From: a virus
Lineage: Duplodnaviria > Heunggongvirae > Uroviricota > Caudoviricetes
Length of the DNA stretch: 34,380 bases
IMG/VR virus record: IMGVR_UViG_2671180849_000019
Direction: 5' to 3' (one strand)
The first letter of the stretch is position 1. Each line of letters starts with the position of its first letter. The notes beneath the pieces are model-generated. The model did no database searches and was not told where the DNA came from. It was given only the letters and a program-made list of their open reading frames with translations. Shown one piece after another: positions 1-26,731 of this stretch. The position numbers and the translations under genes are program-made.

Positions 1-429
1 ATGTACGTATGGAGCGCTAAATCAAATGGCTTTTTCCCCATATCGGAGAAAGAAAAATTTGAGGCATCAGGTCTGTGGCCTGATGATGGTGTAATAGTCA
101 GTGAGGAAGAACATAAAAAGTTATTTATGGATATTCCACCAGGAAAACAGATTGGAACACTGAATGGAAAACCAGCACTGATAGATATTCCTCAGCCGAC
201 CAAAAAGGAATTAATAGCTATTGCTGAAGTTAAAAAATCCCAATTACGGGAAAAAGCTGACAGTGAAATATCCTGGCGTCAGGATGCTGTTGATGCTGAT
301 ATCGCAACTGATGAAGAAACTTCAACTCTCACCGAATGGAAGAAATACCGTGTGCTGCTGATGCGTGTTGATACTTCAACAGCACCCGATATTGAATGGC
401 CTACGCCTCCGGCAGTTCAGGCCAGATGA
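1..429 (+). CDS. tail fibre assembly protein (Tfa/U-like); may be 5'-truncated by the window edge
   Basis: C-terminus ...[23 protein letters not shown] resembles the conserved C-terminus of lambda Tfa / Mu U family chaperones. Convergent with, and overlapping by 29 bp, a second Tfa gene on the opposite strand. Confidence 0.75.
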
Positions 430-994
430 CATCCGGCGCGGTGCTGGTATCTGTTGCCGTCACCGCGTCAATGTAATCCAGCACGGTGTTAAGTCGGGTT
501 GTTTCTGCCTGAGTCAGTTTCCGTCCGGCCTGTAATTTCAGCTGAATCAGACTAATGGAAGCCATTACTGCATCAATCAGTGACTGGCGCTGTGCTTCTG
601 CTGCTTCTACTGCGGCGTTATGCTGTGCCTCAGTATCTGTCACCCATTTCTCACCATCCCATTTATCATATGGCGTTAACGGTGAAAGCGTGACATAACC
701 GTTTTTGATGGCACCGATATAATCCACTGTAACAGCTGCGCCATTTTCTGTTGAGTAAACAGTCTCATTGCGATGGTCTTCTTCATGGCTCCATCCCTTA
801 CCCGTAAATACTGCCACTTTCCCCGGAATGTTTTCGCCCGGGTCAATACCAGTGGAACAGGCGGGCATACTTACGCCAGTATTAATATATTCATCAGACC
901 AGCCCGTATACTCAGATGTTTCAGCATCATAATAAAAACAACGCATATCGCCCGGCACTGTAGCCAGCCCATTTTTATCAAAAACAGGTTTCAT
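401..994 (-). CDS. tail fibre assembly protein (second, inverted copy; partner of the silent fibre cassette)
   Basis: 197-aa ORF with Tfa-like C-terminus (...[20 protein letters not shown]). Its ATG overlaps the stop of the upstream fibre cassette (TAATG). Confidence 0.8.
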
Positions 995-1451
995 TATTTA
1001 GCCCTCACCAGAAAGTTAAATGCAATATTTCGCGGTCTGACAGCAACAAAATTCACACCATCACCCACAGAGTTACTGGTGAAATTAAATCGTGAAAATC
1101 CTGGCTGATTTCCGGCGATGCCATCATGAAAGTTAATTGCGTGTCCCGCACCTCCGCCTATATTCCCGGCAAACTGAGAAAAGTTTGTAGCTTCCTGCCA
1201 GCTTAATAATTCGCGACCACCGTCTGCACCTCGCCCGTCATCCCAGATACGAATGAAATCACCGCGGGCTTCAGGTAATACCAGCGAAGGAAATACTTTC
1301 GCCAGCACAGGATAATCAGTGGCAGAGAATTTCGCGCCGTTGAACTTCAAAAACACCATACTGGACCAGCTGTCGATTACAGTATTTGGCATTGCAGCGG
1401 ACGGCCAGAAGAACGGAACGCCAATAGCTGGAGCACCTTCTCCCAAACCAA
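994..1451 (-). CDS. tail fibre C-terminal cassette (Sv'-like), silent: starts at the invertase crossover site and has no start codon of its own in this orientation
   Basis: Reading frame open from crossover site 1438-1463 to the stop at 994-996. Residues GLGEGAPAIGVPFFWPSAAMPNT... are identical to the distal part of the H ORF at 8317-8700. Confidence 0.65.
1068..1451. repeat. 384-bp segment identical to 8317-8700; identity ends at the invertase crossover dinucleotide
   Basis: Base-by-base comparison of the two stretches in the window shows no mismatch or indel. The flank beyond 1451 (CGTTTAAGAAAA, invertase side) differs from the flank beyond 8700 (GGTATGTGAGAA, H side). Confidence 0.95.
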
Positions 1452-1463
1452 CGTTTAAGAAAA
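1438..1463. other. DNA invertase crossover site (hix/gix/cix-like), TTCTCCCAAACC-AA-CGTTTAAGAAAA
   Basis: 26-bp imperfect dyad with central AA, resembling Hin/Gin recombination sites. Lies 50 bp upstream of the invertase gene and exactly at the repeat boundary. Confidence 0.6.
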
Positions 1464-1512
1464 TGCAGAGGTACCAGCTAACTGGCATCATCTCCGGTTT
1501 TTATTCAGGGGG

Positions 1513-2085
1513 ATGATCATGCTTATTGGCTATGTACGCGTGTCAACAAATGACCAGAACACCGATTTGCAACGTAATGCACTGAACTGCGCGGGATGTG
1601 AGCGGATTTTTGAGGACAAAATCAGTGGCACTAAGTCCGACAGACCGGGGCTGAAAAAACTACTCAGGACACTATCGGCAGGAGACACGCTGGTTGTCTG
1701 GAAGCTGGACAGGTTGGGGCGCAGTATGCGGCATCTTGTTACGCTGATAGAAGAGTTGCGCCAGCGTGGTGTGAATTTCAGAAGCCTGACTGACAGTATT
1801 GATACCAGTACCCCAATGGGCCGTTTCTTTTTTCATGTCATGGGTGCCCTGGCTGAAATGGAACGCGAACTGATAGTTGAACGTACCAGGGCAGGGCTGG
1901 CTGCAGCTCGTGCCAAAGGCAGAGTAGGTGGACGCCGTCCTAAGTTGACCACCGAACAGTGGGCACAGATTGGGCGTTTACTCGAGGCCGGAGAATCAAT
2001 ACAGCGTATTGCACTGATTTTTGATGTAGGCGTTTCTACCATTTATAGAAAATTTCCGGCAAATAAGATCAATGAATCCCCCTGA
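1513..2085 (+). CDS. serine DNA invertase (Pin/Gin/Cin/Hin family)
   Basis: N-terminus LIGYVRVSTNDQNTDLQRNAL with the catalytic Ser in the VRVST context, plus VVWKLDRLGRS, SPMGRFFFHVMGALAEMERELIVERT and a C-terminal HTH; near-colinear with e14 Pin as recalled. Start may be the ATG at 1519. Confidence 0.9.
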   Translation: MIMLIGYVRVSTNDQNTDLQRNALNCAGCERIFEDKISGTKSDRPGLKKLLRTLSAGDTLVVWKLDRLGRSMRHLVTLIEELRQRGVNFRSLTDSIDTSTPMGRFFFHVMGALAEMERELIVERTRAGLAAARAKGRVGGRRPKLTTEQWAQIGRLLEAGESIQRIALIFDVGVSTIYRKFPANKINESP

Positions 2086-2133
2086 ATCAGCATTATGTTG
2101 ATTATCCCTGCAAGCAGACAAATACCGTTATTT

Positions 2134-2151
2134 TGTGTGAATAACGACACA
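2134..2151 (+). promoter_or_regulatory. P2-type late promoter activator dyad (TGT-N12-ACA) upstream of FI
   Basis: TGTgtgaataacgacACA lies about 85 bp upstream of the FI start. P2 late promoters carry this dyad centred near -55 (Ogr-dependent). Confidence 0.45.
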
Positions 2152-2227
2152 ACTGCGCTTAGCTGTTTGTCAGGCACAATCACTTCAACATAGGGCGAAG
2201 CCTAATCCAATCAGGAGGTTCGCCACT

Positions 2228-3400
2228 ATGGCTCAGGATTACCACCACGGGGTGCGCGTTGTTGAAGTCAACGAAGGCACCCGATCTATTACCACGGTGA
2301 GCACCGCCATCGTGGGTATGGTCTGCACGGGCGATGATGCCGATGCAAAAATGTTTCCTCTTAATAAACCCGTGCTGATCACTGATGTGCTGACTGCCAG
2401 CGGTAAAGCGGGTGAGTCAGGTACTCTGGCCCGTTCGCTGGATGCCATCGCTGACCAGGCAAAACCCGTGACCATTGTTGTGCGTGTGCCGCAGGGTGAA
2501 ACGGAAGACGAAACCACGACCAATATCATCGGCGCAGTGACTGCTGAAGGTAAAAAAACAGGTATGAAAGCCCTGTTATCTGCCCAGTCACAGCTCGGCG
2601 TTAAACCGCGCATTCTCGGCGTGCCAGGCCACGACACCAAGGCGGTAGCTACTGAGTTGCTGAGCGTGGCGCAACGCCTGCGTGGATTTGCTTACCTGTC
2701 AGCGTATGGCTGCAAGACAGTGCAGGAGGCGATCACTTACCGCGAAAACTTCAGCCAGCGCGAAGGGATGCTGATCTGGCCTGACTTTACTGGTTGGGAC
2801 ACGGTGCTGAATGCCGAAGCAACGGCATATGCCACCGCCCGTGCGCTTGGTCTGCGCGCCAAAATTGACGAGCAGACCGGATGGCACAAAAGCCTGTCCA
2901 ACGTGGGCGTGAACGGTGTCACCGGAATTTCTGCAGATGTGTTCTGGGATCTGCAGGACCCGGCAACCGATGCAGGTCTGCTGAACCAGAACGACGTCAC
3001 CACGCTTGTGCGTAAAGACGGTTTCCGCTTCTGGGGTTCCCGCTGCCTGAGTGATGACCCGCTCTTTGCCTTCGAAAACTACACCCGCACGGCGCAGGTG
3101 CTGATGGACACGATGGCAGAAGCACACATGTGGGCGGTGGATAAACCGCTTAACCCGTCGCTGGCCCGCGACATTATCGAAGGTATCCGCGCCAAAATGC
3201 GCAGCCTGGTCAGTCAGGGCTATCTCATTGGTGGTGATTGCTGGCTGGATGAGTCGGTGAACGACAAAGACACGCTGAAAGCCGGAAAACTCACCATCGA
3301 CTACGACTACACGCCAGTGCCGCCACTTGAAAACCTGATGCTGCGTCAGCGCATCACCGATCAGTACCTGGTGAATTTCGCCAGCCAGGTCAGCGCGTAA
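2228..3400 (+). CDS. FI: tail sheath protein (gpFI)
   Basis: 390-aa ORF; [19 protein letters not shown]...[12 protein letters not shown]... and C-terminal ...[22 protein letters not shown] match P2 FI as recalled. AGGAGG RBS upstream. Confidence 0.95.
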
Positions 3401-3409
3401 GGGGACAAC

Positions 3410-3925
3410 ATGGCATTACCACGCAAATTAAAACACCTGAACCTGTTTAACGACGGGAACAACTGGCAGGGGATCGTTGAGTCGCTGACGCTGCCGAAAT
3501 TTACCCGCAAATATGAGAAGTATCGCGGCGGCGGAATGCCGGGTGCGGTGGATGTGGATCTGGGGCTTGATGACAGTGCGCTGGACACAGAATTTTCCAT
3601 TGGTGGTACTGAATTGCTGCTGTTTAAACAGATGGGTAAAGCCACGGTGGATGGCATCCAGCTGCGCTTTACCGGCTCTATTCAGCGTGACGATACCGGG
3701 GAAGTGCAGGCCGTGGAGCTTGTCGTGCGTGGACGTCACAAAGAAGTGGATTCCGGCGAGTGGAAGACGGGCGAAAGCAACACCACCAAAGTGACCAGTA
3801 CCAACAGCTACGCGAAGCTGACCATCAATGGTGAGGTGCTCTATGAAGTGGACCTTATCAACATGGTGGAAATTGTGGACGGTGTGGACCTGATGGAAGC
3901 GCACCGCAACGCCCTCGGCCTCTGA
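3410..3925 (+). CDS. FII: tail tube protein (gpFII)
   Basis: 171-aa ORF immediately downstream of FI, P2 FII-like in size and position. Confidence 0.9.
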   Translation: MALPRKLKHLNLFNDGNNWQGIVESLTLPKFTRKYEKYRGGGMPGAVDVDLGLDDSALDTEFSIGGTELLLFKQMGKATVDGIQLRFTGSIQRDDTGEVQAVELVVRGRHKEVDSGEWKTGESNTTKVTSTNSYAKLTINGEVLYEVDLINMVEIVDGVDLMEAHRNALGL

Positions 3926-3979
3926 TATATCTGAACGGCGCGGGATACCGCGCCAGAACCCAATTGACAGGACAGCAAA

Positions 3980-4282
3980 ATGAGCGATAAGCAGACTGAA
4001 AAGACCATTCAACTGGATACCCCCATCAAGCGCGGTAAAACAGAAATCACCGAAATTGTGCTGCGTAAACCGCAGTCCGGTGCGCTGCGCGGTACACGCC
4101 TGCAGGCCATTATGGATATGGATGTAAACGCGATGATGACCGTGATCCCCCGCATCTCCAGTCCGGCACTGACTGCACAGGAAATTGCAGAGATGGACCC
4201 GGCAGATCTCACTGCCATGTCGGTTGAGGTTGTCACTTTTTTGTTGAAGAAGTCGGTGCTTGCCGGTTTACCGACAGCCTGA
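3980..4282 (+). CDS. E: tail assembly chaperone gpE (zero-frame product)
   Basis: 100-aa ORF between FII and T, containing the slippery heptamer TTTTTTG at 4237-4243 near its 3' end. Confidence 0.85.
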   Translation: MSDKQTEKTIQLDTPIKRGKTEITEIVLRKPQSGALRGTRLQAIMDMDVNAMMTVIPRISSPALTAQEIAEMDPADLTAMSVEVVTFLLKKSVLAGLPTA

Positions 4283-4416
4283 CGGTTGACGATCTGGTGG
4301 CAGATATCGCCACCATTTTTCACTGGCCGCCATCCGTTACTGACGTTATGCCGCTGACCGAAGTGCTGGAATGGCGGTATAAAGCGATTCAGAGAAGCGG
4401 GGCCAACGATGAGTGA
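3980..4416 (+). CDS. gpE+E' fusion predicted from programmed -1 ribosomal frameshift at TTTTTTG (4237-4243)
   Basis: The -1 frame is open for 58 codons from the slip site (FVEEVGACRFTDSLTVDDL...EWRYKAIQRSGANDE) and stops at TGA 4414-4416, overlapping the T start at 4409. Same layout as P2 E/E'. Confidence 0.6.
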
Positions 4417-7400
4417 TAACAACCTGCGTCTGCAGGTCATTCTTAATGCGGTTGACAAGCTCACCCGTCCATTTCGATCTGCGCAGGCCAGTTCAAGAGA
4501 ACTGGCTGCTGCTGTCAAAAAATCCCGCGATGCAATAAAGCAGCTTGATCAGGCCGGGAGCAGTCTGGACAGCTTCCGAAAGCTGCAGGCAGAAAATCAG
4601 AAATTAGGCGACAGGCTGAACTATGCCCGCCAGCGTGCAAATTTGCTCAGTCAGGAACTGGGAGCGATGGGGCCGCCTTCGCAACGTCAGGTTGTTGCTC
4701 TGGGCCGTCAACGGCTGGCTGTTCAGCGCCTGGAAGAACGCCAGAAAAAGCTGCAGCAGCAGACGGCGCTTGTGCGTGCTGAACTGTACCGGGCGGGAAT
4801 TTCTGCGAAAGACGATGCGGGAGCAACTGCCCGTTTAGCCCGTGAAACATCACGTTATAACCAGGAACTTTCGAAACAGGAGGCGCGGCTGAAGCGACTG
4901 GGGGAAGCTCAGCGCAGGATGAATGCAGCGCGTGCCAGTTATGCCCGTTCGCTGGAGGTGCGTGATCGTATTGCAGGTGCCGGAGCCACCACCACGGCTG
5001 CAGGGCTGGCAATGGGTGCGCCAGTGATGGCGGCAGTAAAAAGCTATACCAGCATGGAAGATGCCATGAAAGGTGTGGCAAAGCAGGTCAATGGTCTGCG
5101 TGACGATAATGGCAACCGCACTGCACGTTTTTATGAAATGCAGGATGCCATCAAGGCTGCCAGCGAACAGTTGCCGATGGAAAACGGTGCGGTGGACTTC
5201 GCTGCACTGGTTGAAGGTGGTGCGCGCATGAACGTCGCAAACCCTGACGACAGCTGGGAAGATCAGAAACGTGACCTGCTGGCCTTCGCCAGTACGGCAG
5301 CAAAGGCGGCAACAGCCTTTGAGCTGCCAGCGGATGAACTGTCAGAAAGTCTGGGGAAAATCGCCCAGCTCTACAAAATCCCCACCCGCAATATTGAACA
5401 GCTCGGTGATGCGCTGAACTATCTGGATGATAACGCCATGTCGAAAGGGGCAGACATCATTGATGTGATGCAACGTCTGGGCGGTGTGGCTGACCGTCTG
5501 GATTATCGTAAAGCGGCGGCGCTGGGTTCCACCTTCCTGACACTGGGCGCTGCGCCAGAGGTTGCAGCCAGTGCAGCAAACGCGATGGTGCGTGAATTGT
5601 CCATTGCCACCATGCAAAGCAAGAGTTTCTTTGAAGGGATGAATCTGCTGAAACTCAATCCTGAAGTGATTGAAAAGCAGATGACGAAGGATGCGATGGG
5701 AACCATCCAGCGCGTGCTGGAGAAGGTAAACGCGCTGCCGCAGGACAAGCGCCTGTCTGCCATGACTATGTTGTTTGGTAAAGAGTTTGGCGATGACGCG
5801 GCGAAACTGGCAAACAACCTGCCGGAACTGCAGCGTCAGTTAAAACTGACAGCGGGCAATGATGCGCTCGGCTCCATGCAGAAAGAATCCGACATTAACA
5901 AGGATTCACTTTCTGCGCAGTGATTGCTGGTCAAAACCGGAGCGCAGAACACCTTCAGCAGCCTGGGCGAAACGCTGCGCCAGCCGCTGATGGATATTCT
6001 GTACACGGTGAAAAGCGTCACGGGGGCGTTGCGTCGCTGGGTGGAAGCTAACCCGGAACTGACAGGCACACTGATGAAAGCATCGGCTGTTGTGGCTGCG
6101 GTTACCGTCGGCCTCGGCACCTTAGCGGTGGCGCTGGCTGCAGTGCTGGGGCCGCTGGCAGTGATCCGTCTGGGATTCTCTGTGTTGGGTATCAAAACGT
6201 TATCTTCCGTTACGGCAGCAGTAACTCGAACCAGCAGCGCGTTGTCCTGGCTGGCTGGCGCACCACTGGCACTGCTGCGACGCGGGCTTGCTTCATCGGG
6301 CAACGCCGCAGGTTTACTTACTGCGCCGTTGTCGTCTTTGCGCCGCACGGCATCACTGACGGGAAATGTCCTGAAAACTGTAGCAGGTGCGCCGGTTGCA
6401 CTTTTGCGGTCTGGATTATCCGGTTTACGTGCGGTTGCTGTGATGTTTATGAATCCACTGGCAGCACTACGCGGCGGGCTGGCTGCCGCAGGCACGGTGC
6501 TGCGAGTACTGGCATCTGGTCCACTGGCGATGTTGCGCGTTGCCCTGTATGCCGTATCTGGTCTGTTAGGTGCTCTGCTCAGTCCGATAGGTCTTGTGGT
6601 TACTGCACTGGCGGGTGTGGCACTGGTTGTCTGGAAATACTGGCAACCCATCACCGCATTTCTCGGTGGCGTGGTGGAAGGATTCAAAGCGGCGGCAGGT
6701 CCCATCAGTGCAGCGTTCGAACCGCTTAAGCCTGTGTTCCAGTGGATTGGTGACAAAGTGCAGGCGCTGTGGGGCTGGTTTACTGATCTGCTGACGCCCG
6801 TTAAGTCGACTTCTGCCGAACTGCAGAGCGCAGCGGCAATGGGGCGACGATTCGGGGAGGCACTGGCGGAAGGGCTGAATATGGTTATGCATCCGCTGGA
6901 CTCCCTGAAATCTGGCGTTTCCTGGTTGCTGGATAAACTCGGCATTGTCAGTAAAGAGGCTGCAAAGGCGAAACTGCCGGAAAGCGTGACGCGTCAGCAA
7001 CCTGCGACGGTGAATGCAGACGGTAAAGTGATGATGCCATCGGGTGGTTTTCCGTCATGGGGATATGGCTTTGCGGGGATGTATGACAGCGGCGGCTATA
7101 TCCCGCGCGGGCAGTTTGGCATCGTCGGTGAAAACGGGCCGGAAATTGTTAACGGCCCGGCAAATGTGACCAGCCGGAGAAATACAGCTGCACTGGCTGC
7201 CGTTGTTGCCGGAATGATGGGCGTTGCTGCCGCGCCTGCAGAGCTTCCACCGTTGCACCCTTTGGCACTTCCCGCGAAAGGCGGCGAAGCGATGGTGAGT
7301 CGTGCAGCCACTGTGCCGCCCGTTCAACGGATTGAGGCACCGATGCAGATCATCATTCAGACGCAGCCAGGACAAAGTGCGCAGGATATTGCGCGGGAGG

Positions 7401-7486
7401 TGGCCCGCCAGCTTGATGAACGTGAACGTAGGCTGAAGGCAAAAGCCAGGAGTAACTACAGCGATCAGGGGGGATACGACGCATGA
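4409..7486 (+). CDS. T: tail tape measure protein (gpT-like), interrupted by an in-frame TGA at 5921-5923 (possible pseudogene, readthrough or sequence error)
   Basis: ORFs 4409-5923 and 5924-7486 are in the same frame, separated only by TGA. Coiled-coil-rich N half and Ala/Leu/Gly-rich hydrophobic repeats in the C half are typical of tape measure proteins. Gene sits between E' and U. Confidence 0.8.
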
Positions 7487-7968
7487 TGATGGTGCTGGGA
7501 TTGTACGTGTTTATGCTGCGCACCGTGCCGTATCAGGAGCTGCAGTATCAACGCAGCTGGCGACATGCGGCAAACAGCCGGGTAAACCGACGTCCGTCCA
7601 CGCAGTTTCTGGGACCGGACAACGACATGCTGACGCTTTCCGGTGTTCTTATGCCGGAGATAACAGGTGGCAGGCTGTCGTTGCTGGCACTGGAGCAGAT
7701 GGCAGAACAGGGGAAAGCATGGCCCCTGATTGAAGGCAGCGGCACGATTTATGGCATGTATGTGATTGAGGGACTGAATCAGACTAAAACGGAGTTTTTC
7801 CGCGACGGTATGCCGCGCCGGATTGAGTTCACCCTGTCGCTCAAACGGGTGGATGAATCCCTGTCCGATATGTTCGGTGATCTCAGTGCGCAACTGAATA
7901 ATCTGCAGGAAACGGCAACGTCTGCCTTAAGCGATATCAGTAAAACGGTGGGAGGGCTGCTGTCGTGA
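7483..7968 (+). CDS. U: tail protein gpU
   Basis: 161-aa ORF overlapping the T stop (ATGA), in the P2 gpU position. Confidence 0.9.
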   Translation: MMMVLGLYVFMLRTVPYQELQYQRSWRHAANSRVNRRPSTQFLGPDNDMLTLSGVLMPEITGGRLSLLALEQMAEQGKAWPLIEGSGTIYGMYVIEGLNQTKTEFFRDGMPRRIEFTLSLKRVDESLSDMFGDLSAQLNNLQETATSALSDISKTVGGLLS

Positions 7969-8305
7969 ATTTCAGCTCTGAACTGCTTAACAAAAGCAAC
8001 AAAACTCCGGCATTCAGCATCAGTATTGAGGGTAGGGATATCACCACTGTGCTGGATAACCGCCTGATGAGTCTGACTCTGACGGACAATCGGGGCTTTG
8101 AAGCAGACCAGCTTGATCTGGAGCTGGACGATGCCGACGGGAAAATCGTGCTGCCGCGCCGTGGTGCGGTCATTACGCTGGCGCTGGGCTGGAAGGGGCA
8201 GCCGCTTTTCCCGAAAGGGGCATTCACGGTGGACGAGATTGAACACACTGGCGCACCGGACCGCCTGACTATCCGGGCGCGAAGTGCTGATTTTCGGGAA
8301 ACGCT
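7965..8305 (+). CDS. D: tail protein gpD (late control D family), 3'-truncated by the N-gap
   Basis: ORF starts with start/stop overlap to U and is open for 113 codons until the N run at 8306. Confidence 0.8.
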
Positions 8306-8316
8306 NNNNNNNNNNN
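8306..8316. other. assembly gap (11 N)
   Basis: Literal run of n characters in the sequence. Confidence 1.
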
Positions 8317-8700
8317 CAGAGTTACTGGTGAAATTAAATCGTGAAAATCCTGGCTGATTTCCGGCGATGCCATCATGAAAGTTAATTGCGTGTCCCGCAC
8401 CTCCGCCTATATTCCCGGCAAACTGAGAAAAGTTTGTAGCTTCCTGCCAGCTTAATAATTCGCGACCACCGTCTGCACCTCGCCCGTCATCCCAGATACG
8501 AATGAAATCACCGCGGGCTTCAGGTAATACCAGCGAAGGAAATACTTTCGCCAGCACAGGATAATCAGTGGCAGAGAATTTCGCGCCGTTGAACTTCAAA
8601 AACACCATACTGGACCAGCTGTCGATTACAGTATTTGGCATTGCAGCGGACGGCCAGAAGAACGGAACGCCAATAGCTGGAGCACCTTCTCCCAAACCAA
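8317..8700. repeat. second copy of the 384-bp fibre-cassette segment (identical to 1068-1451), here fused to the constant part of H
   Basis: Exact identity from 8317 up to the crossover dinucleotide at 8699-8700, then divergence. Confidence 0.95.
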
Positions 8701-9748
8701 GGTATGTGAGAAGACCAGCTACATCCTTTCCACTCAAATTGGTAAGCGTATTGTCCAGCGGTTGTTTACCTGCCAGCGCATTAAGCATTGTCGTGGCAAA
8801 GTTCGGATCATTCCCCAGTGCCGCCGCCAGTTCGTTCAGTGTATCCAGTGCAGCAGGTGCAGAACCCACCATTCCTGCAATCGCCGATTTCACAAAAGCC
8901 GTAGTGGCAATCTGTGTATTGTTGACCGACTGCGCCGCCGTGGGGGCTGTTGGCGTTCCGGTGAGTGCCGGACTCGACAACGGTGCTTTTAGTGCCAGCG
9001 CATTGTTAATGGTGGTACTGAAATTCGGATCATTGTTAATGGCTGCGGCTATTTCTTTCAGCGTGTCCAGCGTGGCTGGCGCACCATTAATAAGGGCCGT
9101 CAGTGCCGCCTGTACAAACGCAGTGGTCGCAACCTGCGTGGTATTATTCCCCGCCGCTGGCGTTGGCGCTTTGGGGGTTCCGGTAAATGTCGGGCTGGCT
9201 TTTGGCGCGTACTGTGAATGCGGGTCCGGTGCGGCAAGATGTTTTGCCATCTGATCATCCGCGTACACCTTCAGCTCCAGTGCCTTGTCATCCACATACT
9301 TGCGGGTTGCCAGCACTACAGCAGGGTCGATTTTCAGGGTGATATTGTCCGTGCTGCTGGTAATCAGCACCATGCGCACGGTCTGAGTGCGCCCGCTACC
9401 TTCAGCCAGTTGCGGCTTATAGCTTTCCGGGCAGTTGCCCACGGCAATCAATGCCCCGGACTCATCAAACAAGCCCACTTCACGTATCCACCAACCGCCC
9501 TCGTTTTCAGGGATCACCTGTTCGGCAATAATCTGGCTGCTGTTCTGCGGGTCGATATAAAGCATATTCAGCGCAGCCCGGCGTTTCTCATTTACCAGTG
9601 CCGTCTGCTTTGCGTCCTGCGTTGGCAATACTCCACCGCCATCGCCCACCGCCATATGGGTAATTTTTAGCGGCACACCGAGCGCGGCGGCGCTGGCAAG
9701 TTTCGCCGCGCCAATATCCGTCAGCAGGGTATAAAATTTTGTGCTCAT
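8317..9748 (-). CDS. H: tail fibre protein (gpH-like), 3' end truncated by the N-gap
   Basis: N-terminus MSTKFYTLLTDIGAAKLA...MAVGDGGG...AVGNCPESYKPQLAEGSGRTQTVRMV and the repeated SPxLTGTPTAPT / DTLNELAAALGNDPNFATTM motifs match P2 H as recalled. The ORF-track continuation below 8317 reads through the N run and antisense gpD and is not real. Confidence 0.9.
8687..8712. other. DNA invertase crossover site, TTCTCCCAAACC-AA-GGTATGTGAGAA (H-proximal copy)
   Basis: Same inner half-site and central AA as the site at 1438-1463, different outer half-site. Lies inside the H coding sequence at the constant/variable junction (...TYL|GLGEGAP...). Confidence 0.6.
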
Positions 9749-21007: not shown

Positions 21008-21748
21008 TTACTCAATAGGTTCAAACTCATCCTGAGGAATCAGCGTCGATTGACAGGCTTGGCTTAGTACTCCTGATAATTTACATAATAACCGATAGTT
21101 ATGAGGAGCATCATCGCTAATCTTTTCGACCGTTAAAGTGATTGATTTTGGATCATCCAATAACATCTTCTTGATATCATTACTTAAATACCTAGGGCAG
21201 TAACCAACGATTTCAGCTGGTTTATCTGCACGAACGACAACAGCATCCCCATCGTATTCATTTTGAAGATCCAAGCAAAGACGCAAAATTTGCCCCGGTT
21301 TCAATTCAGATACACGAGCATTAGCTAAGCTATTTAAGTAACCAAGTCCATGTAAGAAGAAAAAATGCTCAAAGTTACCATCAGAATCAACATCAATTTT
21401 TTTGAAAATCTGCAGCTGATCAGTGCTTCGTAAGCCTCCCGAGCGAGCAAGAATATCGATAGGATTTACCTTATCTTCTTCAAATCCAAGCCATTTAATG
21501 AAACTCGGATACTCTGGACGTCTCGGTGATAAAAGGCGATTTTTAAAAAGAGGAAACAATTCTTCCGAAACATAAGTTTCACGAACATCACTCATGCCGC
21601 TAAACTTTGTAAATTTAGTAGATTTGAGAGCACCTTTGGTATACCTGAAAACATACCCCGATTTGCGCTCTTGCAAGTTACCAACAACATGCCAGTCTCT
21701 GGTATCTGGTGCCTGCCATGCGACGTAAACGGAGTTTGTATTAGTCAT
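21008..21748 (-). CDS. hypothetical protein with C-terminal HIRAN-like domain (predicted DNA 3'-end binding); second gene of the kinase cassette
   Basis: 246-aa ORF whose ATG overlaps the kinase stop (ATGA). Segment LRLCLDLQNEYDGDAVVVRADKPAEIVGYCPRYL fits the HIRAN signature as recalled. Confidence 0.6.
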   Translation of the reverse strand: MTNTNSVYVAWQAPDTRDWHVVGNLQERKSGYVFRYTKGALKSTKFTKFSGMSDVRETYVSEELFPLFKNRLLSPRRPEYPSFIKWLGFEEDKVNPIDILARSGGLRSTDQLQIFKKIDVDSDGNFEHFFFLHGLGYLNSLANARVSELKPGQILRLCLDLQNEYDGDAVVVRADKPAEIVGYCPRYLSNDIKKMLLDDPKSITLTVEKISDDAPHNYRLLCKLSGVLSQACQSTLIPQDEFEPIE

Positions 21749-22659
21749 TCTAGTAACCTTCTGCGATTTTCCATTACCATTAACGTTGCAAATCTACGTG
21801 CACTGTCGGATATACACGATGAAGGCACTTGGTTAAACACATCTGTAATGGAATCTTCTGTTAAAACGCTCAACTTACCTAACCAATGGTCGCGAGCGGC
21901 AACTCTCCCTTCAACTGCATGTTGAAATGCTTCAACGGTCAGCAAGGGCTTTTTATCAGTTTTTGCTTTGAATAGCTCAGAGCGAGCTTTTCTTACAAAA
22001 CATGGGATTTGTCGATTTTTATCTTTAGTATTAAGCCGTTCGTTACGCTCATCATCTAACATCTCCCTTCCTAAACTAGCGGCATGATCGTATGTTGGAC
22101 ACAAAAACTGCTCACCAGTTTCATTGTTAAGCATGATCGCCCAATTTTCATGATGGCGATCTTGATTACTCACAAGTGCATCGAGCATCAAATATCCACA
22201 AAATACATCTGCTGCATTTAGCCCGGTTAGATCATATACACTCGGAGGAGGCTTGATAGATTCCCTATCTAAACAACCCAATACCCTTGTGACAGTGTGT
22301 TCTCTGACCCTTACCGGCTTTTCCCCGGCTTGTAAAGGCCCAGGATAATCGAATGTCGAACTGTGAAGCACTTCATTTCCCATTACCATCCGGAAACCAG
22401 ATGGAATGATATTCTGAGTCACCACACCGAATCGACCATTGTATCGCGCCAAATCATAGCTAGCATGTGGAATGTTAAGCAAATGACATAACTCAGCAGC
22501 ACACTTTTCAGACCAATGCTCGCCAGTACCTGGCCTAGAGTACTTAAACAACTGCAAATTTACAGTGTCATCGGAGAAATAGAACCAAAACTTCTCTTTG
22601 GTTCCTAACTGTTCAAGATCGTTAGCTACGGGGCTAAGCTCTACCAATTGGTATGGCAT
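21745..22659 (-). CDS. HipA-like Ser/Thr kinase (short, HipT-sized, lacking the HipA N-terminal subdomain)
   Basis: Catalytic-loop motif LVSNQDRHHENWAIM and downstream LCPTYDHAASLG match the HipA D-x-H-x-x-N and P-x-YD motifs; Gly/Lys-rich N-terminal segment QLGTKEKFWFYF. Confidence 0.7.
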   Translation of the reverse strand: MPYQLVELSPVANDLEQLGTKEKFWFYFSDDTVNLQLFKYSRPGTGEHWSEKCAAELCHLLNIPHASYDLARYNGRFGVVTQNIIPSGFRMVMGNEVLHSSTFDYPGPLQAGEKPVRVREHTVTRVLGCLDRESIKPPPSVYDLTGLNAADVFCGYLMLDALVSNQDRHHENWAIMLNNETGEQFLCPTYDHAASLGREMLDDERNERLNTKDKNRQIPCFVRKARSELFKAKTDKKPLLTVEAFQHAVEGRVAARDHWLGKLSVLTEDSITDVFNQVPSSCISDSARRFATLMVMENRRRLLE

Positions 22660-22954: not shown

Positions 22955-23254
22955 CTGCCAAGGGAAGCGTAAATCCGTATCTGAATGACTGCTGAAAAGC
23001 GAATCATACGGGTTTACAAAGATGAAAGTTCGCTGTGAGCGAGAAGCGAACCTTGCAACTTTGTTGGCACAGTTTTAACACCAATTTTTTGAGGATAGCT
23101 AGAAAACTTGTGGCATAAAGGATCAGTTTCCCGATCGAACTTTTTATCAAGAAGGGCTCATAGCAATCGCCAGAAGAAGTGATGTTAAAGTATTGAGCTC
23201 GGCGTTAAGATTAAATAAATTACAGACTAATCCAATGTTTTGTGGAAGGATAAG

Positions 23255-24298
23255 ATGGCAGTCAAGCGCGCATACTACGGTAACGATAGTGACCGAGACT
23301 ACTTAGAGCGGATATTTCAGTCAGCTAACATTAACTTTCTCATCGGATCAGGTGCATCCCTCCCAGCGATTAAAGTACTGGGGACAATCGAAACGGATCT
23401 TCAGCAGCTTATTAATGATGAACAGGAAGATGAATACTTAAGGATGGCAGCTGACTTTTTGTCAGATGTTTGGCTACCTCATGAATGCATGTTGAAGCGC
23501 GGCTACGGCACCCCCTTCGCACCTCAGGTGATCACCGATTTGGAATGTACCCGTGCAAATTATGATGCATTTATGTCTTCACTGGAAAAGATACTGACCC
23601 GCCGCCGAACTGGCCTACTTCCGAGGCGTATTAACGTTTTTACAACTAATTATGATTTATTCATCGAAGAAGCTGCCACACGTAATAACAATATTCTTTT
23701 TAATGATGGATTCAATAGAAGAGCAAGTATTTTGGGAGATGCGGAATTTGATGCGGGTAGCTTTAATCATTCTGTAAGTGCAACCGGAAATCTGTATAAT
23801 TATAAAGTTGAGCTTCCTACTGTTAACCTTATAAAACTTCATGGTTCGCTCTCTTGGCAGCATTCTAAAGGGAAAATCATTTATCGTATTGCAGATATTA
23901 AGCCGCTTGACTTTCCCACCCTAGCCGAAATGAAAGGATGGGTACTTGCTCATGCACTTATTCTTCCACGTAAGGAGAAGTTTAAAGAGACTCTACTACA
24001 GAACGTTTATTATGATTTACTGAGAACCTATTCCAACGAGCTTGATAAAGAAGCAACTTTACTAATTGTCTTTGGGTTCTCGTTTGCTGATGAGCACATT
24101 GAAACGATAACTAAAAAAGCCCTGCGCAACGCCACCCTGAAGCTACTGATCTTTGCTTTCGATGAGGCCAGTGTTAACGGCTTTATGGAGAAATTTCGGG
24201 ATTACTCAAACGTAGAGATTATTTATCGGCCGGGAAGAAATGTTGATTTTCCGGTAATGAATAACATTATCACGTGCTATCTGGGAGGCTCGAGATGA
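23255..24298 (+). CDS. SIR2-family NAD+-binding protein (defence-associated; SIR2 component of a SIR2-HerA pair)
   Basis: Motifs NFLIGSGASLP (Gly-rich NAD loop), VFTTNYDLFIE and LIKLHGSL (catalytic His). Start taken at ATG 23255 after GGAAGGA; the ORF track starts at TTG 23240. Confidence 0.85.
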   Translation: MAVKRAYYGNDSDRDYLERIFQSANINFLIGSGASLPAIKVLGTIETDLQQLINDEQEDEYLRMAADFLSDVWLPHECMLKRGYGTPFAPQVITDLECTRANYDAFMSSLEKILTRRRTGLLPRRINVFTTNYDLFIEEAATRNNNILFNDGFNRRASILGDAEFDAGSFNHSVSATGNLYNYKVELPTVNLIKLHGSLSWQHSKGKIIYRIADIKPLDFPTLAEMKGWVLAHALILPRKEKFKETLLQNVYYDLLRTYSNELDKEATLLIVFGFSFADEHIETITKKALRNATLKLLIFAFDEASVNGFMEKFRDYSNVEIIYRPGRNVDFPVMNNIITCYLGGSR

Positions 24299-26154
24299 GC
24301 AGGCATTTTACTGAAGAGGAAGCGGTGCTCCGTATAGGCGAAGTCTGTGAGGTTTCTGGACGCGCTGTGACAATTTTGGTCGATAAAAACAAAAATCTCA
24401 GTGACTTGTTTTATCAGGGAAAAGTTCTAAGAAATGTATCAGTGGGTAGCTTCATTGAGATCAAAAAAGGTTTCATGAGCCTGATCGGCAAGGTTGAAGC
24501 GGAACGAATCATTGAGGAAAAACATCTCGCTGGGAGCGGCAGTGATGCCTGGCGATATCGGCGATACCTGACCTCTACTCTTACGGGTTACATTGATCGT
24601 ACTGGTTGCTTCATTGGTGGTTCGCGTGAACTACCTCTCATCGGCAATGAAGTCTTCGTGGTAACTGAAGAGATGATACAAACGGTTCATCAGATAGCTA
24701 ATGCAGACGAAACTGTAATGAGGTTTACTCGTACAGATCTTGAAGATATTGAAATTGCACTACCAATCAATGGTCTTATTAATTCCCACATTGCCATTTT
24801 CGGTAATACAGGCAGCGGAAAGTCAAATACCCTAGCCGCGCTATACAAAGCAGGTATTGCCCAAGTTAAACATATTCTCGGCAACCACTTTAGTGAAAGA
24901 TGCAAATTTATTCTATTCGACTTTAATGGAGAATATACTGCCCCACGCTGTATTACTGACGAGAAGACGGTTTATAATCTCAACACGCACCATGCAAATG
25001 GTGACAAACTTCCTCTACCCAGAGAGGTTCTACTTGAGCATGATATGCTCTCAGTTCTAACCGATGCAACAGACAAAACACAGAAACCTTTCCTGAAGAG
25101 AGTTCTTGAGTTTCGCAAGAAAGTGATGACTGCTGATAATCCTCTTGAGTTTATGCGCAATATCCTGAAGAAAAAAGTCAGACAAAATCTCTTTAGTAGC
25201 GACAAACCCAAATGCGATACTATAAATCAGTTTCTTAGCCCAATTTTCAAAGATGACCCAGAACTTATATCTGATCTTGAGTATCATTCAACTGCATATA
25301 AATGGAAATTGAGGGGTGGTAGTATTTTCAATACAGAAGCTGATACTGAGCGCTCCTATCTATTCAGTCTTGCAAGCAATTTTTTATTTAAAACTGATAT
25401 GATTGAAGAACTGTTGGACTTTATGTACTTACAGTTAATACAGGAATATTTATCTAACAAGTCTAACCCTGAACATATTTCACCAGTTATAAATAGAATG
25501 AGTGCTAACCGTAAAGATATAGCCAAAATATTTGATACTTCCGGACAGTCTGACTTTTGGGGTGAACATAATTTCACGGTTGTGAATCTAAATATGGTTA
25601 ATATAACCATGAAAAAAACGCTTCCTCTTTTGATAGCCAAGTGGGCTTACAATATGAAGAAAATGTCTACAGAGAAATCTACACTGCACATCATTATAGA
25701 TGAAGCCCACAATATTTTGTCTAATACTTCTTTTCGGGAAACGGAAAGTTGGAGAGATTATCGTCTGGAAACTTTTGAGGAAATCATAAAGGAGGGGAGA
25801 AAATTTGGAGTTTTTATCACAATTTCCAGTCAACGCCCTAATGATATATCGTCGACAATCATATCCCAAGCACACAATTATTTTATTCATCGCCTTATTA
25901 ATCAGAATGATCTGTACGCAATTGAAAAATCAGTATCATATATAGATCGACTGACTGAAGAGTCGATTCCAACGCTATCTACAGGAACCTGTATTTTTAG
26001 TGGTATCGTCTGCCCCATGCCGCTCAAATTAAGGGTAGCTGAACTTCCAATTGAAGAAAAACCTAAGAGTAATACTATTTCCTTCAACGATTTAATACCT
26101 GAGAGGCTGGGAGAGGATGACCAGAGCGACTACGTAATAACCAGCCCTCACTAA
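24295..26154 (+). CDS. HerA/FtsK-like ATPase (HerA component of a SIR2-HerA defence pair)
   Basis: Walker A FGNTGSGKSNT and Walker B LHIIIDEAHNI; ATG overlaps the SIR2 stop (ATGA) with a GGGAGG RBS. Confidence 0.85.
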   Translation: MSRHFTEEEAVLRIGEVCEVSGRAVTILVDKNKNLSDLFYQGKVLRNVSVGSFIEIKKGFMSLIGKVEAERIIEEKHLAGSGSDAWRYRRYLTSTLTGYIDRTGCFIGGSRELPLIGNEVFVVTEEMIQTVHQIANADETVMRFTRTDLEDIEIALPINGLINSHIAIFGNTGSGKSNTLAALYKAGIAQVKHILGNHFSERCKFILFDFNGEYTAPRCITDEKTVYNLNTHHANGDKLPLPREVLLEHDMLSVLTDATDKTQKPFLKRVLEFRKKVMTADNPLEFMRNILKKKVRQNLFSSDKPKCDTINQFLSPIFKDDPELISDLEYHSTAYKWKLRGGSIFNTEADTERSYLFSLASNFLFKTDMIEELLDFMYLQLIQEYLSNKSNPEHISPVINRMSANRKDIAKIFDTSGQSDFWGEHNFTVVNLNMVNITMKKTLPLLIAKWAYNMKKMSTEKSTLHIIIDEAHNILSNTSFRETESWRDYRLETFEEIIKEGRKFGVFITISSQRPNDISSTIISQAHNYFIHRLINQNDLYAIEKSVSYIDRLTEESIPTLSTGTCIFSGIVCPMPLKLRVAELPIEEKPKSNTISFNDLIPERLGEDDQSDYVITSPH

Positions 26155-26298: not shown

Positions 26299-26532
26299 TT
26301 AATGCAGCCAGCTGTCGTCTTCCCACACTTTCTGCATAATTTTCATCACTTGTTTTCTTTCTTCATCCAGTTGCAGTCCGGTCAGTTCCACACCGTTAGA
26401 GCTACCTTTGCGGATACGAATTACCGTTTTGGGATACAGGGGGCGCAGATTGCGGTAAAGCTCGGATTCAAGGGCGTCCAGGGTAGACTGGCTAATCTTC
26501 TGCTCTTTATCGATCATTATTTCAATGCGCAT
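26299..26532 (-). CDS. DinI-like protein (Tum/Orf97-like SOS module)
   Basis: MRIEIMIDKEQKISQSTLDALESELYRNL...WEDDSWLH resembles E. coli DinI as recalled. Own RBS GAGGTG. The ORF track starts 24 codons upstream. Confidence 0.75.
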   Translation of the reverse strand: MRIEIMIDKEQKISQSTLDALESELYRNLRPLYPKTVIRIRKGSSNGVELTGLQLDEERKQVMKIMQKVWEDDSWLH

Positions 26533-26542
26533 AAAAGTCACC

Positions 26543-26731
26543 TCAACTGATGACATCCATTGAGCGGTTGTATTCGTGGGTTCTGATTTTTGCCATGAGT
26601 TCATCAGTCAATTCAGAAACCCACTGCAGAGCCAGCCCCTTCTCTTCATCACTACACTCACTAGCCGCTACAAGCTTAAGAAAAAAATCAATGCGCTGGA
26701 GCTTCAAAGACTCCAAAAAATAGTCCTGCAT
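26543..26731 (-). CDS. small hypothetical protein, first gene of the LexA-boxed operon
   Basis: 62-aa ORF with AGGAGG RBS, 43 bp downstream of a consensus LexA box; its stop overlaps the RBS of the DinI-like gene. Confidence 0.5.
   Translation of the reverse strand: MQDYFLESLKLQRIDFFLKLVAASECSDEEKGLALQWVSELTDELMAKIRTHEYNRSMDVIS

Follow-up and report, generated by a model that had tools for sequence, protein, structure and literature searches.

The locus analyzed here raises the question of why one piece of an E. coli prophage is printed twice in its sequence. In the stretch of 34,380 nucleotides that was analyzed as a whole (hereafter the window), direct sequence comparison showed that positions 1068-1451 and 8317-8700 match at 384 of 384 positions, in agreement with the base-for-base identity claimed in the original prediction. 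Such a match is far from what chance would give in 34 kb, and a repeat search of the window found no other long repeat. The right limit of the identity reads ...TTCTCCCAAACCAA, which comprises the inner half-site and central AA of a crossover site. Past this limit, the first copy reads CGTTTAAGAAAA toward an invertase gene and the second reads GGTATGTGAGAA into the constant part of the tail fiber gene H (Hc). A scan of the window with the 26-bp consensus found no crossover-like site beyond these two (1438-1463 and 8687-8712), and at both of them the identity does stop at the central AA, as had been claimed. The two sites are imperfect palindromes of 26 bp that have the inner half and the central AA in common, and they lie on separate contigs in the window. 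Serine invertases such as Hin and Gin make a 2-bp staggered cut, which predicts exchange at the central dinucleotide.

The features of the locus are given below. State 1 denotes the orientation in which cassette X is joined to H, and state 2 the orientation in which X lies beside the invertase gene.

1-8305: contig A, carrying tfaY, tfaX, cassette X, a Gin/Cin-type invertase gene and the tail genes from FI to a truncated D.
1-429, plus strand: tfaY, the chaperone gene paired with cassette Y (Pfam Caudo_TAP, E = 7e-34).
401-994, minus strand: tfaX, the chaperone gene paired with cassette X (Pfam Caudo_TAP, E = 3e-27).
994-1451, minus strand: cassette X, an alternative C-terminus of H, 152 codons and a stop (translation).
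1438-1463: crossover site between X and the invertase gene, TTCTCCCAAACC AA CGTTTAAGAAAA (26-bp consensus scan).
1519-2085, plus strand: serine DNA invertase of the Gin/Cin/Pin/Hin type, 188 aa (Pfam Resolvase and HTH_7).
1537-1604, plus strand: predicted recombinational enhancer inside the invertase gene, aligning with the annotated P7 cin enhancer.
2228-8305, plus strand: FI, FII, E/E', T, U and the 5' part of D (ORFs and annotation of collinear relatives).
8306-8316: scaffold gap of 11 N, joining contigs A and B in a non-native relative orientation.
8317-34380: contig B, carrying X-Hc, I, J, W, V, lysis and head genes, Q, P, cargo, A, B, cox, C and int.
8317-8700, minus strand: second print of X, its first 128 codons, in frame with Hc, state 1 (384/384 identity and translation).
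8687-8712: crossover site between X and H, TTCTCCCAAACC AA GGTATGTGAGAA (26-bp consensus scan).
8701-9748, minus strand: constant N-terminal part of H, 349 codons (Pfam Phage_tail_fib, E = 4e-64).

The window represents a single E. coli prophage of the P2-like type (Peduoviridae, Wadgaonvirus-like), scaffolded from two pieces. It is collinear with P2-family prophages at 96-98% over 21 kb in the P2 gene order, and contigs A and B together make up exactly one P2 gene set as complementary halves. The native order was taken from the complete relatives E. coli LP50-1 and Escherichia phage 500465-1 (Wadgaonvirus, Peduoviridae). Their genes run along a single strand as V, W, J, I, H and tfa, then tfa' and Sv' in the opposed direction, then the invertase gene and FI to D. 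The order and strand of these relatives mean that the gap join in the window is non-native: the native order is the reverse complement of 8317-34380 followed by 1-8305. The native layout is thus V, W, J, I and Hc, a crossover site, X and tfaX pointing forward, tfaY and Y pointing backward, the second site, the invertase gene, and FI onward to D. The window lacks ogr and the 3' part of D, and a sequence scan of it found no cassette Y either. D is cut by the contig end at 8305, and a sibling contig (L015) runs 3.9 kb beyond the equivalent position. The window begins at the ATG of tfaY and finishes at the stop codon of the integrase gene, and its ends look like a gene-bounded provirus cut. Two ORFs read through the 11-N gap, one from H into antisense D (7937-9748, minus strand) and one from D into antisense X (7965-8357, plus strand). 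Both are artifacts of the scaffold join and are unsuited to gene annotation.

At its left edge the second copy directly abuts the 11-N run, and no other position of the window is an N. A contig end, not a biological boundary, therefore sets the left limit of the identity, and the length of 384 bp is without biological meaning. The earlier account of this copy overlooked the gap that sets this length, as well as the mis-oriented join. The H-linked copy of X is longer in sibling assemblies, reaching 489 bp in one (L007) and 1,451 of 1,451 bp in another (L032). The direct orientation of the two copies in the window results only from the flip of contig A against contig B; in the native order they would be inverted. 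The claim that both inversion junctions had been captured is correct in that one H-X and one invertase-X junction are present, but the pair is one junction per orientation state, not both junctions of one state.

The genes on either side of the sites describe what is being switched. Two opposed Caudo_TAP genes accompany the alternative C-termini of H, and both fusions are in frame: H-X is a protein of 501 aa (...LTYLGLGEGAP...) and H-Y one of 447 aa (...LTYLGFGEGAN...). The 152 residues of X form the end of the 501-aa H-X protein of L032, and tfaX follows X on the same strand in all relatives. Cassette Y, which matches Gp53-like_C, sits just left of position 1, and the siblings L033 and L035 extend leftward into it. 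The copy of X at 994-1451 is silent (state 2) because it has no N-terminal part and lies beside the invertase gene. The ORF start at 1491 or 1488, within the site and its flank, is no real start. The exact-protein look-up used the 164-aa form of ORF 994-1491 (165 aa); gene callers take the next ATG. The crossover site beside the invertase gene also occurs in phage 500465-1, L009 and L017, and the site beside H is identical in E. coli B2C, 500465-1 and L032. The two sites are in inverted orientation in L032, L009, L017 and L029, and the 1,748-bp spacing is that of the L032 segment. When the X-invertase, X-H, Y-H and Y-invertase (B2C) sites were compared, exchange was confined to the 7 bases AAACCAA, the central AA included.

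The ORF of the invertase is intact. Its Pfam matches are strong (Resolvase, E = 2.9e-53; HTH_7, E = 6e-16), and it aligns over residues 3-186 with the Gin structures 3UJ3 and 4M6F at E = 1e-90 to 1e-91 (1.5e-91 for 3UJ3). It is 99.6-99.7% identical to its counterpart in phage 500465-1, a range shared with the constant part of H, which from about 8685 onward is 99.7% identical to H of that phage. Amino acid identity to P7 Cin is 75.5%, with the N-terminus MLIGYVRVST in common. The stretch MLIGYVRVSTNDQ pairs residue for residue with MLIGYVRVSTNEQ of P7 Cin, and Ser9 lies within the YVRVST motif; we take this serine to be the catalytic nucleophile. The predicted enhancer shares 55 of 68 nt with the P7 'enhancer', against 73% identity over the first 420 nt of the gene, a comparison confounded by coding constraint. 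Inversion is presumably Fis- and enhancer-dependent.

The origin of the duplicate can be read from sibling assemblies. The contig L032 (GCA_001285085.1), one of two NCBI draft contigs found by the tfaX exact-protein look-up, is without Ns. It equals window positions 14243-8317 at 100% and the reverse complement of 1-1451 at 1451 of 1451 positions. Beyond this match it continues with Y (about 297 bp), the site TTCTCCAAAACCAAGGTATGTGAGAA and 65 bp of reverse-complemented Hc, where the contig ends. The complete invertible segment in L032 measures 1,748 bp between the central dinucleotides and contains one X and one Y. L032 enters the segment from H through X and exits through Y back into H. This path is impossible for a single molecule, and the reads of its isolate therefore held both H-X and H-Y junctions. 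On the other side of the segment, L033 equals window positions 1-6994 with 45 bp further left into Y, and L033 and L035 are 99.96-100% identical to contig A. L035 shows the invertase gene, X, tfaX, tfaY and Y in this order and breaks off precisely at the central AA of the Y-end site, in the manner expected of a branch in the read graph.

Given these assemblies, the duplicate is very probably one segment end printed twice at the scaffold gap, from a culture that held both orientations. From the contigs and the sibling assemblies we infer that the reads of the window's own isolate held both states. A mixture of orientations from which the cassette was emitted twice had been one of two alternatives in the original prediction, and it is borne out by the H-X and Y-H junctions of L032 and by the stop of L035 at the central AA. 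The accompanying statement that the duplicate was direct evidence of inversion under either alternative holds for the mixed population, but a static repeat alone would not be such evidence.

Under this explanation, the Gin/Cin/Pin-type invertase would cut the central AA/TT of two inverted 26-bp sites and flip the segment. The flip would fuse Hc either to X (with tfaX) or to Y (with tfaY), giving two receptor-binding tips. By analogy with Mu, P1 and related systems, this switch of tips is expected to alter the host range. Reads of both states would lead into X from the H flank as well as from the invertase flank. The assembler would have built the invertase-side contig (1-8305) in state 2, while the H-side contig would have grown into X from state-1 reads and halted at 8317. 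The scaffolder would then have linked both contigs by 11 N in the wrong relative orientation. One suggestion for the flip is that, in read pairs from molecules in the H-X state, the X mate may have been assigned to the copy in contig A; A would then be oriented as its reverse complement behind the reverse complement of B, and the negative distance would be printed as a minimal gap. A gapped sibling scaffold, UViG_2698536341_000022 (L007 and L016), shows the same flipped join with other breakpoints: its H side runs 489 bp into the segment, it has 1 N (L007 9708), and its contig A covers only 8022-1123. The recurrence of the flip suggests a systematic cause. Coexistence of both orientations has been reported for the tail-fiber segments of P2-like prophages and e14 in clonal E. 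coli cultures (PMC4272514); in that work, Goldberg et al. used read mapping and PCR on cultures grown from single colonies (PMC4272514).

It is quite unlikely that a gap-filler or scaffolder copied X onto the H contig without reads and that no inversion occurred in the culture. The copy does sit right at the N gap, where the contigs are demonstrably misjoined. However, the H-X junction keeps the reading frame and is exact to the base at the crossover dinucleotide, and it recurs gap-free in the independent L032 assembly and in the complete genome of B2C. The X and Y sides have at most 12 exact bases in common beside the site, which is too few for a false k-mer join; a k-mer assembler could therefore hardly have built the H-X junction from state-2 reads alone.

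It is very unlikely that the window mixes two loci, that is, separate prophages or elements with X, one carrying H-X and the other X-invertase. Our census found 746 X places in 660 complete E. coli records, usually one per record, yet about one eighth of the X-bearing complete records, B2C among them, have more than one X place. The contig breaks beside the variable sites 976 and 1067 also suggest a second related copy. Against this, the two window copies are identical and carry the same rare X allele, whereas the alleles of other phages differ from it at 8 or more of the 384 sites within 1068-1451. The H-linked segment of L032 equals the invertase-linked segment of the window at 1451 of 1451 positions, including the rare A at 976. 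Contigs A and B, as complementary halves, are similarly distant from the same ungapped relatives, L009 and L017. The two-locus explanation had been raised by the mismatch at 976 in L007 and by contig starts at 977, and was rejected for the 384 bp on the full-length match of L032.

The contig ends of the siblings lie at 963 (L007), 977 (L015 and L034) and 1123, and that of the window at 1068. They are near the variable sites 962, 976, 1067 and 1120, which differ in an L011-like cassette allele. L007 has the common G at 976, and the window and L032 have A. In L034, a run of 14 N (3513-3526) links the X end at 977 with a host gene. These genomes probably contain another, related X/tfaX element that creates additional assembly branches; the main conclusion is unaffected.

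The other alternative of the original prediction was that true perfect inverted repeats of at least 384 bp lie inside both sites, as in the C segment of P1 and P7, so that X would be present twice per molecule. Identical 384 bp do abut both sites, and because the H-linked copy ends 73 bp short of the X stop codon, the window by itself is compatible with a repeat. P7 has internal inverted repeats of 198 and 129 nt, and repeats of this kind would account for the assembly breaks at this place. However, the far end of the segment, where the original prediction had suggested looking for the 384 bp in inverted orientation, is covered by the gap-free, complete and 100%-identical segment of L032, which has a single X and a single Y; its sole inverted repeat is the site with the duplicated H flank (85 nt). 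L035 likewise runs from the invertase gene through one X to Y. At the segment ends of five ungapped relatives (L001, L002, L009, L017 and L029), the inverted repeats span just 27-38 nt, and no inverted repeat of 18 nt or more was found at those of L030. In L009, L017, L001 and L030, X lies beside the invertase gene, one X in each. In B2C the same segment (99.5% identity) lies the other way round, with X joined to H, Y beside the invertase gene and again a single X. In L007 and L032 the H-linked copy passes the X stop into tfaX; with a repeat, both tips would thus be the same and tfaY would lack a partner cassette. Among the 24 IMG/VR loci with the exact X 47-mer, one contig holds X twice, and it is the gapped sibling scaffold UViG_2698536341_000022. 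The 47-mer search of IMG/VR returned siblings of the window but not the window's own scaffold. The long repeats were rejected, and have a minimal probability, because neither the complete and ungapped relatives nor the identical sibling segment showed a second X.

There is scarcely any chance that the cassette is really present twice in this isolate, as a fresh inverted repeat of 0.4-0.5 kb or as an H-X rearranged beside the truncated D, in which case the scaffold would show a real structural variant that arose through the invertase or through homologous recombination between prophages.

The module was also met in other settings. In another phage (L008 10218-12509, IMGVR_UViG_2698536454_000020), whose H is only about 72% similar, the same X-tfaX-tfaY-Y module lies between two H-like stretches of about 270 bp each, in inverted orientation. 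These flanks may be a hairpin-type assembly or a true partial duplication of H. In the closely related human E. coli isolates CM1805xx, the module lies in a pinE element at the same chromosomal position on opposite strands, which looks like a natural flip-flop between sibling genomes. It is annotated as 'integrase' in some of these genomes and as 'phage tail protein' in others. The X-ending tail-fiber ORF is likewise labeled 'integrase' at L027 3927-4673 (E. coli APEC E19025) and in similar RefSeq records, a label that appears to be a misannotation.

Some further genes of contig B were noted. At 23240-26154 (plus strand), PADLOC models are matched by a SIR2-like protein of 352 aa (SIR2, E = 6e-211) and by a HerA-type ATPase of 626 aa (HerA, E = 7e-267). 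They are a predicted anti-phage defense pair and belong to the cargo that lies between the portal and replication genes; in the relatives this place is taken by other cargo, for instance retron Ec67, AIPR, KAP NTPase and ParA. At 21008-22659 (minus strand), two genes match the PADLOC candidate PDC-M03 (A, E = 2e-122; B, E = 3e-93), with a HIRAN domain in one and a weak HipA_C match in the other. A DinI-like gene lies at 26299-26604.

The probable printing of one segment end twice, from reads of both orientations, has mainly practical consequences. Invertase switching of phage tail-fiber tips has been known since Mu, P1 and e14. The present system is a standard, already known member of the Gin/Cin/Pin family in a P2-like prophage, with a module that is widespread in E. 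coli. For annotation, the window should be treated as a mis-oriented scaffold of two contigs and the duplicate as an artifact. In draft genomes, doubled cassettes at contig ends may also be a low-cost sign that inversion is active.

Among known inversion systems, the C segment and Cin of P1 and P7 resemble the present one in the architecture of the sites and in the invertase (Cin identity as above); the match of 55/68 nt at the predicted enhancer, in the 5' part of the gene, may reflect coding constraint. They differ in the long internal repeats (198 and 129 nt in P7), through which both fiber variants share part of the variable region; in the phage described here no such repeat extends beyond the sites, L032 having only the 85-nt site and H flank and the relatives 27-38 nt. 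The G segment of Mu with Gin, the P segment of e14 with PinE and the B segment of Shigella with PinB are alike in that the invertase gene adjoins the segment, the segment lies between two 26-bp sites whose crossover is the central 2 bp, and opposed pairs of cassette and chaperone replace one fiber C-terminus. Both pinE elements and Mu-like prophages of E. coli contain the X-tfaX-tfaY module itself, with 93-99% identity. Unlike in Mu, e14 and Shigella B, the module here lies in a P2-like prophage between H and FI, where it replaces gene G. The Mu segment is about 3 kb, and the segment here is smaller (1.75 kb). Multi-site systems, such as Min of p15B and the shufflon-like P2 prophage of EPEC, differ from this locus, which has two sites in the window and two in L032. 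The P2-like prophages of EPEC E2348/69 (PMC4272514) have the same gene order as here, but one EPEC prophage has three repeats and four variants in place of two sites (PMC4272514). Phage 500465-1 (Wadgaonvirus) shares both this gene order and identical crossover sites, and carries other cassettes inside its segment.
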